64,000 nucleotides of DNA, from the NCBI RefSeq assembly GCF_013122565.1, contig NZ_CP053258.1. One strand, 5' to 3'. The position numbers and the translations under genes were made by a program. Below, in pieces: positions 1,602 to 6,962 of the stretch. Positions within the stretch are counted from its first letter, which is position 1. The number at the start of each line of letters is the position of its first letter. The stretch comes from Escherichia coli. Lineage in GTDB: Bacteria > Pseudomonadota > Gammaproteobacteria > Enterobacterales > Enterobacteriaceae. The notes beneath the pieces were generated by a model. It did not search any database, was not told the origin of the DNA, and saw only the letters and a program-made list of their open reading frames with translations.

Positions 1602-1900
1602 TCCCCTTACAACATGGACTGATCCTCGCGGCAATCTTATTCGTTCTTGGCTTAACCGGTCTGGTTATCCGTCGCAATCTGCTGTTTATGCTGATTGGTC
1701 TGGAAATCATGATTAACGCCTCCGCACTGGCCTTTGTGGTCGCCGGAAGCTACTGGGGTCAGACCGACGGTCAGGTGATGTACATTCTCGCCATCAGCCT
1801 CGCGGCGGCAGAAGCGAGTATCGGCCTTGCGCTGCTGCTGCAACTTCACCGTCGTCGCCAGAACCTGAACATCGATTCAGTAAGTGAGATGCGCGGATGA
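1598..1900 (+). CDS. nuoK: NADH-quinone oxidoreductase subunit K
   Basis: 100-aa, 3-TM protein; 4-nt overlap with nuoJ stop; synteny. Confidence 0.95.
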
Positions 1901-3738
1901 ACATGCTTGCCTTAACCATTATTTTGCCATTGATTGGCTTCGTCCTGCTGGCATTCTCCCGTGGGCGCTGGTCTGAAAACGTCTCGGCGATCGTCGGCGT
2001 AGGCTCTGTGGGCCTGGCGGCGCTGGTAACCGCCTTTATTGGCGTCGACTTCTTCGCTAACGGCGAGCAGGCTTACAGCCAGCCGCTGTGGACGTGGATG
2101 TCAGTAGGCGACTTTAACATCGGTTTTAACCTGGTGCTGGACGGCCTGTCGCTGACCATGCTCTCGGTGGTCACTGGTGTGGGTTTCCTGATCCACATGT
2201 ACGCCTCCTGGTACATGCGCGGTGAAGAGGGCTACTCTCGCTTCTTCGCCTACACCAACCTGTTCATCGCCAGCATGGTAGTTCTGGTGCTTGCCGACAA
2301 CCTGCTGCTGATGTACCTCGGCTGGGAAGGCGTGGGCCTGTGCTCCTATCTGCTGATCGGTTTCTATTACACCGATCCGAAGAATGGCGCAGCGGCAATG
2401 AAAGCGTTCGTCGTGACCCGTGTGGGTGACGTTTTCCTCGCTTTCGCACTGTTCATTCTTTACAACGAACTGGGCACCCTGAACTTCCGCGAAATGGTGG
2501 AACTGGCACCAGCGCACTTTGCTGACGGCAATAACATGCTGATGTGGGCGACGCTGATGCTGCTGGGCGGTGCGGTCGGTAAATCTGCGCAGTTGCCGTT
2601 GCAGACATGGCTTGCCGACGCGATGGCGGGCCCGACGCCTGTCTCCGCGCTGATCCACGCCGCAACGATGGTAACCGCGGGTGTCTACCTGATCGCCCGT
2701 ACCCACGGCCTGTTCCTGATGACGCCGGAAGTTCTGCATCTGGTGGGTATTGTCGGGGCGGTTACGCTGCTGCTGGCCGGTTTTGCCGCGCTGGTACAGA
2801 CCGACATCAAACGTGTTCTCGCTTACTCTACCATGAGCCAGATTGGCTACATGTTCCTCGCGCTTGGCGTGCAGGCATGGGATGCGGCGATTTTCCACTT
2901 GATGACTCACGCGTTCTTTAAAGCGCTGCTGTTCCTGGCATCCGGTTCCGTCATTCTGGCCTGCCATCACGAACAGAACATCTTCAAGATGGGCGGTCTG
3001 CGTAAATCTATTCCGCTGGTTTATCTCTGCTTCCTGGTGGGCGGCGCAGCCCTGTCGGCACTGCCGCTGGTCACTGCGGGCTTCTTCAGTAAGGATGAGA
3101 TCCTCGCGGGTGCGATGGCGAATGGTCATATCAATCTGATGGTGGCAGGTCTGGTCGGTGCGTTTATGACCTCGCTCTACACCTTCCGTATGATTTTCAT
3201 CGTCTTCCACGGAAAAGAACAAATTCACGCTCACGCCGTGAAAGGGATCACCCACAGCCTGCCGCTGATTGTGCTGCTGATCCTTTCCACCTTCGTTGGC
3301 GCACTGATTGTACCGCCGCTGCAGGGCGTGCTTCCGCAAACGACAGAGCTGGCGCACGGCAGCATGTTGACCCTGGAAATTACCTCTGGCGTGGTCGCGG
3401 TGGTCGGCATTCTGCTGGCTGCCTGGCTGTGGCTGGGTAAACGTACTCTGGTGACCTCCATCGCCAACAGTGCGCCGGGCCGTCTGCTGGGCACCTGGTG
3501 GTACAACGCCTGGGGCTTTGACTGGCTGTACGACAAAGTGTTCGTCAAGCCGTTCCTGGGTATTGCCTGGTTGCTGAAACGCGATCCGCTGAACTCAATG
3601 ATGAACATCCCGGCTGTCCTTTCCCGCTTTGCAGGTAAAGGTCTGCTGTTAAGCGAGAACGGCTATCTGCGCTGGTATGTGGCATCCATGAGCATCGGTG
3701 CGGTCGTGGTGCTGGCACTGTTGATGGTACTGCGTTGA
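1897..3738 (+). CDS. nuoL: NADH-quinone oxidoreductase subunit L (antiporter-like)
   Basis: 613-aa membrane protein; 4-nt overlap with nuoK; recognisable NuoL sequence. Confidence 0.96.
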
Positions 3739-3758
3739 GTTGTTGGCTGAGTGAATAT

Positions 3759-3777
3759 ACCCGGCGTTGCGCCGGGT
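3759..3777 (+). other. GC stem-loop in the nuoL-nuoM intergenic spacer
   Basis: aCCCGGCGttgCGCCGGGt perfect inverted repeat, 21 nt after the nuoL stop. Confidence 0.5.
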
Positions 3778-3968
3778 CTGTGAACTAAGAATAAATTTTA
3801 GGTAACTGTTCCTGAAGTACAGGTGTCATCGGCGAAGTCAGACCGGATACCGCCAGCGCACAGCAACCGGAGCGTACTTAAGTACGTGAGGATTGCGAGC
3901 ACTGCCGGGATTCGGGCTGGCGAGTGAGATAGCCTGAGCAGGAGTAAATATAAGGGACATACTTAGCT

Positions 3969-5498
3969 ATGTTATTACCCTGGTTAATACTAATCCCCTT
4001 TATCGGCGGCTTCCTGTGCTGGCAGACCGAACGCTTTGGCGTCAAGGTGCCGCGCTGGATCGCGCTGATCACCATGGGATTGACGCTGGCGCTGTCGCTG
4101 CAACTGTGGTTGCAGGGCGGTTATTCACTGACGCAATCCGCCGGAATTCCGCAGTGGCAGTCTGAATTCGACATGCCGTGGATCCCGCGTTTTGGTATCT
4201 CTATCCATCTCGCCATTGACGGGCTGTCGCTGCTGATGGTCGTGCTGACCGGTCTGCTCGGTGTGCTGGCGGTACTCTGTTCGTGGAAAGAGATCGAAAA
4301 ATATCAGGGCTTCTTCCACCTCAACCTGATGTGGATCCTGGGCGGCGTTATCGGCGTGTTCCTTGCCATCGACATGTTCCTGTTCTTCTTCTTCTGGGAA
4401 ATGATGCTGGTGCCGATGTACTTCCTGATCGCACTGTGGGGGCATAAAGCCTCTGACGGTAAAACGCGTATCACGGCGGCAACCAAGTTCTTCATTTACA
4501 CCCAGGCGAGTGGTCTGGTGATGTTGATCGCCATCCTGGCGCTGGTTTTTGTTCACTACAATGCGACCGGCGTCTGGACCTTCAACTATGAAGAGCTGCT
4601 GAATACGCCAATGTCCAGTGGTGTGGAATATCTGTTGATGCTGGGCTTCTTCATCGCATTTGCGGTGAAAATGCCGGTGGTTCCGCTGCATGGCTGGCTG
4701 CCGGATGCGCACTCACAGGCTCCGACTGCCGGTTCCGTTGACCTCGCGGGGATCTTGCTGAAAACCGCCGCTTACGGTCTGCTGCGTTTCTCCCTACCGC
4801 TGTTCCCGAACGCGTCGGCAGAGTTCGCGCCAATCGCTATGTGGCTGGGTGTTATCGGCATCTTCTACGGTGCGTGGATGGCCTTCGCCCAGACCGATAT
4901 CAAACGTCTGATCGCCTACACCTCGGTTTCCCACATGGGCTTCGTGCTGATAGCTATCTACACCGGCAGCCAGTTGGCCTACCAGGGCGCGGTAATTCAG
5001 ATGATTGCGCACGGCTTGTCGGCGGCGGGTCTGTTTATTCTTTGTGGTCAGCTTTATGAACGTATCCATACCCGCGACATGCGCATGATGGGCGGTCTGT
5101 GGAGCAAGATGAAATGGCTGCCAGCACTGTCGCTGTTCTTTGCGGTGGCAACGCTTGGGATGCCTGGCACCGGTAACTTCGTCGGCGAATTTATGATTCT
5201 GTTCGGCAGCTTCCAGGTTGTCCCGGTGATTACCGTTATCTCTACCTTTGGGCTGGTCTTTGCCTCTGTTTATTCGCTGGCGATGTTGCATCGTGCTTAC
5301 TTCGGTAAAGCGAAAAGCCAGATTGCCAGCCAGGAACTGCCTGGGATGTCGCTGCGTGAGCTGTTTATGATCCTGTTGCTGGTGGTGCTGCTGGTACTGC
5401 TGGGCTTCTATCCGCAGCCGATTCTGGATACCTCGCACTCCGCGATTGGCAATATCCAGCAGTGGTTTGTTAATTCCGTTACTACTACAAGGCCGTAA
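3969..5498 (+). CDS. nuoM: NADH-quinone oxidoreductase subunit M (antiporter-like)
   Basis: 509-aa membrane protein; follows a 230-bp gap after nuoL; synteny. Confidence 0.96.
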   Translation: MLLPWLILIPFIGGFLCWQTERFGVKVPRWIALITMGLTLALSLQLWLQGGYSLTQSAGIPQWQSEFDMPWIPRFGISIHLAIDGLSLLMVVLTGLLGVLAVLCSWKEIEKYQGFFHLNLMWILGGVIGVFLAIDMFLFFFFWEMMLVPMYFLIALWGHKASDGKTRITAATKFFIYTQASGLVMLIAILALVFVHYNATGVWTFNYEELLNTPMSSGVEYLLMLGFFIAFAVKMPVVPLHGWLPDAHSQAPTAGSVDLAGILLKTAAYGLLRFSLPLFPNASAEFAPIAMWLGVIGIFYGAWMAFAQTDIKRLIAYTSVSHMGFVLIAIYTGSQLAYQGAVIQMIAHGLSAAGLFILCGQLYERIHTRDMRMMGGLWSKMKWLPALSLFFAVATLGMPGTGNFVGEFMILFGSFQVVPVITVISTFGLVFASVYSLAMLHRAYFGKAKSQIASQELPGMSLRELFMILLLVVLLVLLGFYPQPILDTSHSAIGNIQQWFVNSVTTTRP

Positions 5499-5504
5499 AT
5501 CGCC

Positions 5505-6962
5505 ATGACAATAACTCCACAAAACCTGATCGCACTGCTACCGTTGCTGATCGTCGGCTTGACGGTGGTGGTTGTGATGCTCTCCATTGCGTGGCGACGC
5601 AATCATTTCCTCAACGCTACGCTCTCGGTTATTGGGCTTAACGCGGCGCTGGTTTCGCTCTGGTTTGTTGGCCAGGCGGGCGCTATGGACGTTACGCCGC
5701 TGATGCGCGTTGATGGTTTCGCCATGCTTTACACCGGGCTGGTATTGTTGGCGAGCCTCGCCACCTGTACTTTCGCCTACCCGTGGCTTGAAGGCTATAA
5801 CGACAACAAGGATGAGTTCTACCTGTTGGTGTTAATTGCCGCGCTGGGCGGGATCCTGCTGGCGAATGCCAACCATCTGGCGTCTCTGTTCCTCGGTATC
5901 GAACTGATCTCTTTGCCGCTGTTTGGCCTGGTCGGTTACGCTTTCCGCCAGAAACGTTCGCTGGAAGCCAGTATCAAATACACTATCCTTTCTGCCGCAG
6001 CGTCTTCTTTCCTGCTGTTCGGTATGGCGCTGGTGTATGCGCAGTCTGGCGACCTGTCGTTTGTCGCGCTGGGTAAAAACCTCGGCGACGGTATGCTCAA
6101 CGAGCCGCTGTTGCTGGCAGGTTTCGGCCTGATGATTGTTGGCCTTGGCTTCAAACTCTCTCTGGTGCCGTTCCACCTGTGGACGCCAGACGTATACCAG
6201 GGCGCGCCTGCGCCGGTTTCCACTTTCCTGGCGACGGCGAGCAAAATCGCTATCTTCGGCGTGGTGATGCGTCTGTTCCTTTACGCTCCGGTGGGTGACA
6301 GTGAAGCGATTCGCGTGGTGCTGGCGATTATCGCCTTTGCCTCTATCATCTTCGGTAACCTGATGGCACTGAGCCAGACCAACATCAAACGTCTGCTCGG
6401 TTACTCATCTATCTCTCACCTCGGCTATCTGCTGGTGGCGCTGATTGCGCTGCAAACGGGCGAGATGTCGATGGAAGCGGTAGGAGTTTACCTGGCCGGT
6501 TATCTGTTCAGCAGCCTCGGCGCGTTCGGCGTGGTCAGCCTGATGTCCAGCCCGTATCGTGGCCCGGATGCTGATTCCCTGTTCTCTTACCGCGGTCTGT
6601 TCTGGCATCGCCCGATCCTCGCGGCGGTGATGACGGTGATGATGCTGTCTCTGGCCGGTATCCCGATGACGCTGGGCTTTATCGGTAAGTTCTACGTGCT
6701 GGCGGTCGGTGTCCAGGCACACTTGTGGTGGCTGGTGGGTGCCGTGGTTGTCGGTTCGGCAATCGGCCTCTACTACTACCTGCGCGTGGCGGTGAGCCTG
6801 TATCTTCACGCCCCGGAACAACCGGGTCGCGATGCACCGTCAAACTGGCAGTACAGCGCGGGCGGTATCGTGGTGCTGATTTCTGCACTGTTGGTACTGG
6901 TGCTGGGTGTATGGCCACAACCGCTGATTAGTATTGTGCGTTTGGCAATGCCGCTGATGTAA
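5505..6962 (+). CDS. nuoN: NADH-quinone oxidoreductase subunit N (antiporter-like)
   Basis: 485-aa membrane protein; last gene of the nuo operon; followed by a hairpin plus T-run. Confidence 0.96.

Follow-up and report, generated by a model that had tools for sequence, protein, structure and literature searches.

A composite, strain-variable spacer between nuoL and nuoM of Escherichia coli that carries a conserved long hairpin

The genes of the nuo operon of Escherichia coli are tightly packed, with one large gap. In a 64,000-nucleotide stretch of contig NZ_CP053258.1 (assembly GCF_013122565.1), referred to here as the window and matching O157:H7 genomes best (99.5-99.6% identity), nuoL (1897-3738) and nuoM (3969-5498) are separated by a spacer of 230 bp that holds two hairpins with an A+U-rich linker between them. 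We put the probability at roughly 0.5 that this spacer is a composite, strain-variable non-coding piece, transcribed within the nuo mRNA, that would exert a modest and dispensable tuning of the stability of the nuoA-L message relative to that of nuoMN and would insulate the initiation of nuoM. Operon spacers with palindromic repeats and REP-like hairpins are a kind already known, and the present one is not a new regulator. The gap had been pointed out in an earlier note made from the letters of the window, and its extent is exact: by the open reading frame (ORF) listing and NCBIfam, nuoK (1598-1900), nuoL, nuoM and nuoN (5505-6962) all lie on the + strand, and the remaining nuo junctions are short, with 14 nt between H and I, 11 nt between I and J, 6 nt between M and N, and 4-nt overlaps at J/K and K/L. 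The perfect stem-loop described in the same note is likewise present (the GC hairpin; Table 1). The dominant feature, which the note overlooked, is an imperfect palindrome of ~140 nt further downstream (the long hairpin), and it is owing to this palindrome that the spacer folds so strongly, the minimum free energy (MFE) fold of the whole 230 nt having -87.5 kcal/mol (z = -4.0 relative to shuffles).

Structure and conservation of the long hairpin

The long hairpin is centred on 3879/3880, with the apex CGTACTT|AAGTACG at 3873-3886, and folds at -59.7 to -59.9 kcal/mol. A family profile built from its E. coli paralogs was run with nhmmer and identified a sole copy in the window (E = 8.5e-41). 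A degenerate pattern for the NuoM N-terminus, applied to species-representative genomes, yielded 120 loci, from which 115 nuoL-nuoM spacers of Enterobacterales were extracted. When the profile was run on these spacers, the long hairpin was found at the junction in 26 of the 115 species, in every case on the + strand (E = 1e-17 to 4e-36). The carriers span two families, Enterobacteriaceae and Erwiniaceae, and include Citrobacter youngae, C. sedlakii, Buttiauxella, Enterobacter, Kosakonia, Phytobacter, Siccibacter, Shimwellia, Pseudenterobacter, Entomohabitans, four Erwinia and one Pantoea. Identity of their hairpins to that of the window is 77-95%, compared with 76-91% for the adjoining 600 nt of nuoL and nuoM.

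The pairing of this element has been maintained during its divergence. RNAalifold, applied to an alignment of 27 ortholog sequences, predicted a single long hairpin with 35 pairs; compensatory double changes occur in 11 of them. Specifically, 97.7% of the alignment cells are paired, as opposed to 19-35% when the partners are slid by 1-3 columns, and double changes occupy 65 cells compared with 16.5 +/- 4 in column shuffles, none of which (0/500) scored as high. Furthermore, G-U outnumbers A-C by 92 to 6 on the + strand of the nuo orthologs, which argues that the + strand is the strand under pairing constraint. Unpaired positions are conserved as well; the blocks GGCGTyATCGGCG, AGCAACCG, GTGAGGATTGCGAGCAC and AAGATAGCC are invariant, and the invariant loops of the hairpin include AUCGGCGAAG and GAGUAAGAUAGCC. 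Since its pairs are kept by compensatory change above the level of the controls, the long hairpin qualifies as a conserved structured cis-RNA in the generic sense, though its strand bias is intrinsic to the element, as described below. The window itself departs from this pattern at one residue: T3824 stands in the basal helix in place of C, so that a C-G pair conserved elsewhere becomes the weaker U.G.

Layout of the spacer and alleles of the junction

The GC hairpin, which precedes the long hairpin, has an energy of -15.6 kcal/mol, or -19.6 if it is extended to 3750-3786, and among 5000 shuffles of the spacer only 18 gave a perfect stem as long (7 bp or more) and as GC-rich (6 or more G/C). 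It lies in the slot after the nuoL stop that is used by REP/BIME (PU) elements, as in Citrobacter, Klebsiella and the K-12 allele. Bona fide REP/BIME units were found at this slot in Citrobacter youngae, L067, C. koseri, Klebsiella and others, and Intestinirhabdus L103 and Siccibacter L122 have other stems and loops there. Because the relatives vary in this manner, the GC hairpin is best described by its position, that of a REP-like stem-loop, its sequence not being conserved. A REP is a GC-rich imperfect palindrome of ~35 nt, whereas the GC hairpin is shorter (7-bp stem, 3-nt loop); the likeness is positional.

The order of these parts resembles that of two known arrangements, REP-type 3′ stabilisers and papBA-type 5′ hairpins. 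REP/BIME elements within operons act as 3′ stabilisers of upstream segments (PMC9023263). In papBA and several K-12 operons, RNase E cuts at RN|WUU and a protective 5′ hairpin then stabilises the distal genes (Dar & Sorek 2018, PMC5927463; nuo is not named in the main text of that paper). The papBA module places an unstructured AU-rich site, a stable hairpin and the distal gene in the same order as the spacer, where the likeness is one of sequence layout. By analogy, the GC hairpin would block 3′-exonucleases and so stabilise the nuoA-L part of the message, and the linker, a candidate entry site by its motifs of the RN|WUU type (definition for RNase E from PMC5927463), would be cut by an endonuclease such as RNase E. 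The long hairpin would then become the 5′ end of the nuoMN segment, shielding that segment and keeping the nuoM start structurally insulated. As a net effect, the spacer would tune how much mRNA of the proximal subunits there is in relation to that of the distal ones. A site for RNA processing or stabilisation was among the suggestions of the earlier note, and the hairpin-linker-hairpin layout fits it; it is from this architecture that we infer cleavage and a stabilising effect. A literature search on the nuoL-nuoM junction found nothing relevant.

The 32 nt at 3937-3968 are 100% identical across the Salmonella, Citrobacter, Intestinirhabdus and Siccibacter spacers, and the K-12-type allele has AAGGAA at the spacing from the nuoM start at which the window has its probable Shine-Dalgarno sequence. 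In the MFE fold, 3745-3753 (GGCUGAGUG) pairs with 3960-3968 (ACUUAGCU), the 9 nt directly before the nuoM AUG, and this pairing is predicted to enclose the entire spacer as one domain. The 5′ segment GTTTGTTGGCTG is retained in the Citrobacter, Intestinirhabdus and Siccibacter spacers.

A consensus scan of 3739-3968 found no terminator-like site and no + strand sigma-70-like promoter (-35/-10, 16-18-nt spacing), so that read-through of the spacer in the nuo mRNA is expected. On the minus strand a sigma-70-like site runs from 3975 to 3947 (ATAACA, 17 nt, TATATT; 9/12 matches), which is at chance level (1 versus 0.4 expected); it overlaps the nuoM start and aims antisense into the long hairpin, in the orientation of the sX9-type matches described below. 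Inside nuoM, at 4177-4189 on the + strand, CGTGGATCCCGCG is a terminator-like stem with TTTTGGTATC after it, also at chance level (0.6 expected). The spacer had been described as free of ORFs, and this is essentially right: the only ORFs have 34-40 aa, with a + strand one of 34 aa at 3823-3927 that obtains its GTG start from the private single-nucleotide polymorphism (SNP) T3824. A small protein was rejected as a candidate, given that these ORFs are not conserved, and that the + strand one is frameshifted or stopped in many orthologs and owes its start to a private SNP.

Table 1. Features of the nuoL-nuoM junction (positions in the window) and graded forms of the hairpin before nuoM
Feature	Position	Strand	Basis or remark
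nuoL-nuoM intergenic spacer, 230-bp allele	3739-3968	+	Letters, ORF listing, NCBIfam
GC hairpin, CCCGGCG-TTG-CGCCGGG	3760-3776	+	Folding, shuffles; 21 nt past nuoL stop
A+U-rich single-stranded linker, 73% A+T, candidate RNase E entry	3777-3806	+	RN|WUU-type motifs at 3793-3799
Long imperfect-palindrome hairpin	3807-3946	+	Folding; nhmmer family-profile match 3813-3943
Probable nuoM Shine-Dalgarno, AAGGGA	3952-3957	+	11 nt upstream of ATG 3969; 6 nt past long-hairpin base
Salmonella-like recombination tract, spacer plus first ~80 nt of nuoM	~3739-4052	+	Block-wise comparison
SNP T, private to the window	3824	+	C in S. arizonae, orthologs and the remaining 230-type genomes
Graded hairpin, K-12 type			GGUCC-UGAC-GGGAC, 4-5 bp
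Graded hairpin, 76-bp spacer class (E. cloacae, C. werkmanii, others)			~9-bp stem
Graded hairpin, Franconibacter L093 and Kosakonia cowanii L038			Shortened intermediates
Graded hairpin, window and 25 other species			Full element, ~50 bp

Among the 115 spacers, length varies between 18 and 295 bp. Those of the Enterobacteriaceae share a frame that consists of a variable 5′ part, an AU-rich box (…GAATTCGTTGAAAATC), a hairpin, the ribosome-binding region and the ATG. The variable 5′ part may be empty or contain a hairpin, a single REP or a BIME of two REPs. Between the conserved AU-rich box and the nuoM Shine-Dalgarno sequence there is always a hairpin, whose length forms a graded series from a few base pairs to the full element (Table 1). 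The 41-bp spacers of Enterobacter sp. ENT03 (L056) and Trabulsiella (L085) have little beyond a Salmonella-type ribosome-binding segment (…AGAATATAAGGGACATACGCAGCT) and no hairpins, which indicates that the two types of ribosome-binding region are distributed independently of the long hairpin.

Within E. coli the junction exists in two main forms, which we counted in 5,426 complete genomes. The 230-bp allele is the minority form, present in 723 of these (13%) and always with at least 99% identity, and a 163-bp K-12-type spacer in 4,699, K-12 MG1655 being an example; the two are unrelated from 5 nt past the nuoL stop to the nuoM start. Carriers of the 230-bp form include O157:H7, O55:H7, E. coli B (BL21(DE3), ATCC 11303 and NEBExpress), O78:H4 avian pathogenic E. 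coli, enterotoxigenic E. coli and many human and animal isolates. As these are dispersed over E. coli lineages, the allele is polyphyletic. The K-12 spacer (L004, NC_000913.3 2393042-2393204) holds a REP-like unit, GTAGGTCGGATAAGCCGCCTTCGCGGTGCATCCGACA, at a place where the RefSeq record showed no annotated repeat feature, and its 3′ half is homologous to the spacers of C. koseri, K. oxytoca and the 76-bp class. One genome, that of E. coli O157:H7 TR01 (L005, NZ_CP033605.1, 301-530), has a chimeric spacer of exactly 230 bp, whose 230-type middle lies between ends of K-12 type (the first ~41 and the final ~44 nt); this may be either a real recombinant or an artefact of reference-guided assembly or polishing.

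A comparison with S. enterica subsp. arizonae (L112) suggests where the 230-bp allele came from. The S. arizonae spacer is identical to that of the window at 229 of 230 positions, GC hairpin included, while the genes nuoI-nuoN are 88-92% identical to S. arizonae and 98-99.6% identical to K-12. The near-identity extends over the spacer and into the first codons of nuoM (99.6%, with 1-2 nt differences in the tract); outside, the window resembles K-12, and its differences from S. arizonae amount to 6-24% per 50-nt block. BL21(DE3) and the O78:H4 strain share the Salmonella-type nucleotides of the window at 3975, 3984, 3990, 3995, 4004 and 4052, at all of which K-12 differs. That the tract is nearly identical to S. 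arizonae between flanking genes that are 88-92% identical indicates a recombination import, and it is through this tract that the 230-bp spacer entered E. coli or is shared with it. The direction was probably from a Salmonella-like donor to E. coli, since the tract is ~6% divergent from K-12 in its nuoM codons and since its closest relatives are the Salmonella, Citrobacter and Intestinirhabdus spacers. A single tract of ~315 bp, foreign to the K-12-type background, thus underlies the 230-bp allele and has later spread among E. coli lineages. Two other accounts were rejected. Selection alone is ruled out as the cause of the 99.6% identity, which enters nuoM codons that differ in K-12 and stops abruptly near 4052, and a recent insertion of a MITE (a miniature transposable element with inverted repeats) specific to the O157 lineage is ruled out by the orthology in 26 species and by the polyphyly of the allele.

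Relatives of the element and its strand bias

The long hairpin belongs to an old, dispersed and low-copy family. An E. coli genome has about 4-6 relatives of it with ~78% identity, and paralogs, conserved over ~120-150 nt, were located at pheM-pheS, pyrH-frr and qseE-qseG. A metagenome scan with the shared core GTAYGTGARRATKKCGAGCAC gave 120 loci, and the profile had 122 hits in 116 of these. Full-length copies lie at dnaN/recF, nudB/yebC, dnaG/rpoD, dnaB/alr, queA/tgt, ffh/rpsP, ucpA/cysP, speB/loiP, cysE/trmL and other sites, in both orientations and also between convergent genes (ten of the flanking proteins were confirmed by NCBIfam and the rest were recognised by eye). The other ~70 hits are in GC-richer contigs and consist of 120-140-nt palindromes with the same core and different outer arms, sometimes several to a contig: three sX9-like palindromes occur within ~330 nt of L197 (310-636), and pairs a few kb apart occur in the GC-rich metagenome contigs L133, L157, L189 and L235. 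With two or three palindromes per GC-rich contig, the superfamily acts as a multi-copy repeat in those organisms. A possible counterpart of the family is the 'RSA' repeat of the K-12 inventory (~152 bp, ~6 copies; Blattner 1997/Bachellier 1996), with which its length and its copy number per genome would agree.

In its general properties the long hairpin is like ERIC/IRU (RU-1). Both are imperfect palindromes of ~127-140 nt that are intergenic, lie in or near transcription units in either orientation, have a low copy number in E. coli, vary between strains and are replaced elsewhere by unrelated sequence. Moreover, the apex is near-identical to that of the ERIC consensus of Wilson & Sharp, as printed in PMC2759123 Table 1a (GGAGCgTACtTAAGTAcGTGA; 18/21 identities, z about 5). 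The arms, however, do not align with this consensus, and the family profile scored only the apex of ERIC and SeRU-1 (5.6-7.0 bits, E 0.85-2.3), although both still outrank 2,000 shuffles against the profile. Terminal repeats and target-site duplication define ERICs further (PMC2229807 Table 1); in place of the ERIC termini TATAC...GTATA and 5′-TA-3′, the long hairpin ends in TGTTCCTGAAGTACAGG...CCTGAGCAGGAGTA. Around the core there is a short CCTGA direct repeat, suggestive in itself; the comparison of filled with empty sites is inconsistent between the spacer subtypes and gives no clear target-site duplication. Canonical ERICs (76-85% identical to the consensus) occur at separate sites in the same contigs as family members (L156 2195-2306, L182 8729-8840, L212 10823-10947, L137 4427-4540 and L203 1942-2055). 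An identity with canonical ERIC is thus ruled out by the apex-only match and by the presence of genuine ERICs as separate elements. In Yersinia, ERIC copies co-transcribed within operons alter how stable the adjacent transcripts are, depending on the orientation of the copy, according to the summaries of De Gregorio 2005 given in PMC2229807 and PMC3184786.

The other related family is sX9 of Xanthomonas (Rfam RF02228), which shares a core (…AACCGGAaCGTAC-loop-GTACGTGAGGATTgCGAGCAC…) with the long hairpin. Against the sX9 model, with its gathering cut-off of 44, the window copy scored 16.0 bits (E = 3.4, minus strand), the qse paralog 30.8, and four GC-rich core-sharing copies 44.2-49.3 bits, at or above the cut-off. 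The outer arms of the long hairpin differ from those of sX9, the enteric copies are low-copy and positionally conserved, and the sX9 model lies on the opposite strand. By these comparisons of sequence, the long hairpin is a distant relative of sX9 and not a member. A small RNA was a further suggestion of the earlier note; distant relatives of the long hairpin do match an Rfam family under that heading, and the window's own copy falls well short (16 bits against 44). sX9 is among the twenty most prevalent 'sRNAs', multi-copy and widespread and with no stated function (PMC9029176), and this prevalence without a function would fit a repeat. A known Rfam family at the locus was otherwise rejected: 3400-4300 and three paralog loci, when scanned by E-value, matched nothing beyond miRNA noise, the Phe leader and sX9 below its threshold. 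The family is therefore distinct, having an ERIC-like apex and an sX9-like core and being formally a member of neither.

The dispersed copies also bear on which molecule is constrained. On the + strand of the element, the ratio of G-U to A-C is 11:3 at loci where the copy is in sense, 52:12 where it is antisense and 19:3 at convergent sites; at nuo, the favoured strand is the mRNA strand in all 26 species. The host mRNA as the molecule under selection was rejected on these counts, as antisense copies should then show an excess of A-C and show the 52:12 excess of G-U instead. Copies held antisense to co-directional neighbours with a G-U bias on their own strand include L009 1201-1303 (qseE-qseG), L171/L176 (dnaN-recF), and L140 and related loci (ffh-rpsP). 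Such a bias may have been passed on by a founder copy, or may come from strand-specific recognition of single-stranded DNA or from a transcript of the element's own, and none of the explanations considered here accounts fully for antisense copies that keep it.

Alternative readings and what the spacer means

Several observations weigh against the tuning of nuo messages that we favour. The earlier note took the spacer for a constant part of the nuo operon, yet E. coli has two alleles of it, and both hairpins are absent from 87% of the genomes, K-12 included; many genera, among them Yersinia, Proteus and Providencia, likewise have spacers of 18-41 bp without both hairpins, so that any effect of the spacer would be dispensable. 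The RN|WUU motif is a loose one, and chance alone would supply it in any AU-rich stretch. The exact GC hairpin occurs, besides the window's allele, only in S. arizonae L112; conservation within the spacer, which the earlier note had proposed to check for this stem, is instead strong in the long hairpin, with its covariation. In addition, because the G-U bias follows the element strand at antisense loci, the structural constraint is not simply selection on the host mRNA. One other reading is that the spacer contains a transcription signal, either an attenuator or terminator after nuoL or a promoter for nuoMN, as the position of the GC hairpin right past the stop codon and the unusual size of the gap in a tightly packed operon might suggest. 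The letters that follow the GC hairpin (TCTGTGAAC) and the long hairpin (TAAATATAAGG) contain no U-run, and the GC hairpin is for this reason not an intrinsic terminator. As the scan of the spacer gave neither a terminator-like nor a + strand promoter-like site, as the conserved part is a hairpin and not promoter hexamers, and as most E. coli lack the hairpin allele, the attenuator and the promoter of the earlier note are not borne out, and we consider a signal of this sort very unlikely.

The main rival, possible though in our view less likely, is that both hairpins are passengers, relics of selfish or duplicative palindromic repeats in a permissive slot that persist because a stable hairpin closed on itself does no harm to a transcript, and that the differences between alleles are neutral. 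A junction so variable in length, at which REPs, BIMEs and hairpins are gained and lost, is what this would predict, as are the predominance in E. coli of an allele lacking both hairpins, shortened intermediates that suggest decay through deletion, relatives that are multi-copy in GC-rich genomes, family copies in both orientations and at convergent sites, and the high prevalence of sX9 without a known function (PMC9029176). A neutral relic would, however, not be expected to have been kept in one place and one orientation across 26 species of two families, nor to equal or exceed the adjoining coding DNA in identity, and its invariant unpaired blocks and compensatory changes point to purifying selection. 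That selection may act on the element itself and not on the nuo mRNA, with nuo merely a host site, if the hairpin is recognised strand-specifically as single-stranded DNA (as REP/IS200-type hairpins are by HUH enzymes) or gives rise to a small RNA of its own, as was reported for sX9 in Xanthomonas. Such a function would explain why G-U is favoured on one and the same strand of the element whether copies lie in sense, in antisense or at convergent sites, why the unpaired internal-loop sequences are so conserved and why GC-rich relatives reach the sX9 gathering score, and an antisense transcript through the long hairpin could start from the promoter-like site of the minus strand. This site is at chance level, however, and no + strand promoter consensus lies in or near the hairpin; the sX9 matches lie on the other strand from that which G-U favours; the enteric copies are few in number and fixed in position, with no sign of recent mobility and no transposase linked to the family here; and the strand bias may be inherited in part from a founder copy. 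On balance we find a function of this kind, independent of nuo, unlikely. Only slightly better placed, and still rather improbable, is the broader idea that the ~120-140-nt hairpin is an unrecognised structured element of ancient conservation that acts as RNA or as single-stranded DNA and has a trans-acting partner dedicated to it. This idea rests on the fixed sites in housekeeping operons across Enterobacterales (nuo, pheST, frr, rpoD, recF, rpsP, yebC and others), the core shared with multi-copy sX9-type elements of distant proteobacteria, and the strand-specific pairing and invariant loops, which do not depend on the direction in which the host genes are transcribed.

Whichever reading applies, Salmonella and E. 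coli can exchange a core-operon spacer through a tract of ~300 bp. Between two laboratory lineages in common use, K-12 and B/BL21 (and O157), the whole nuoL-nuoM spacer and the nuoM translation-initiation region have been replaced, which amounts to a natural experiment; the allele difference could alter the stoichiometry or the stability of the distal complex-I messages, a modest matter for nuo itself. For the family the implications are wider. A group known to Rfam only as sX9 of Xanthomonas has long, positionally conserved and covarying relatives in enteric housekeeping operons, and the constraint on the element strand is explained by neither an mRNA-stabiliser nor a selfish-MITE account alone. 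If a dedicated partner does exist, the nuoL-nuoM dimorphism of E. coli, BL21/O157 versus K-12, would be a natural knockout of one copy of the element.

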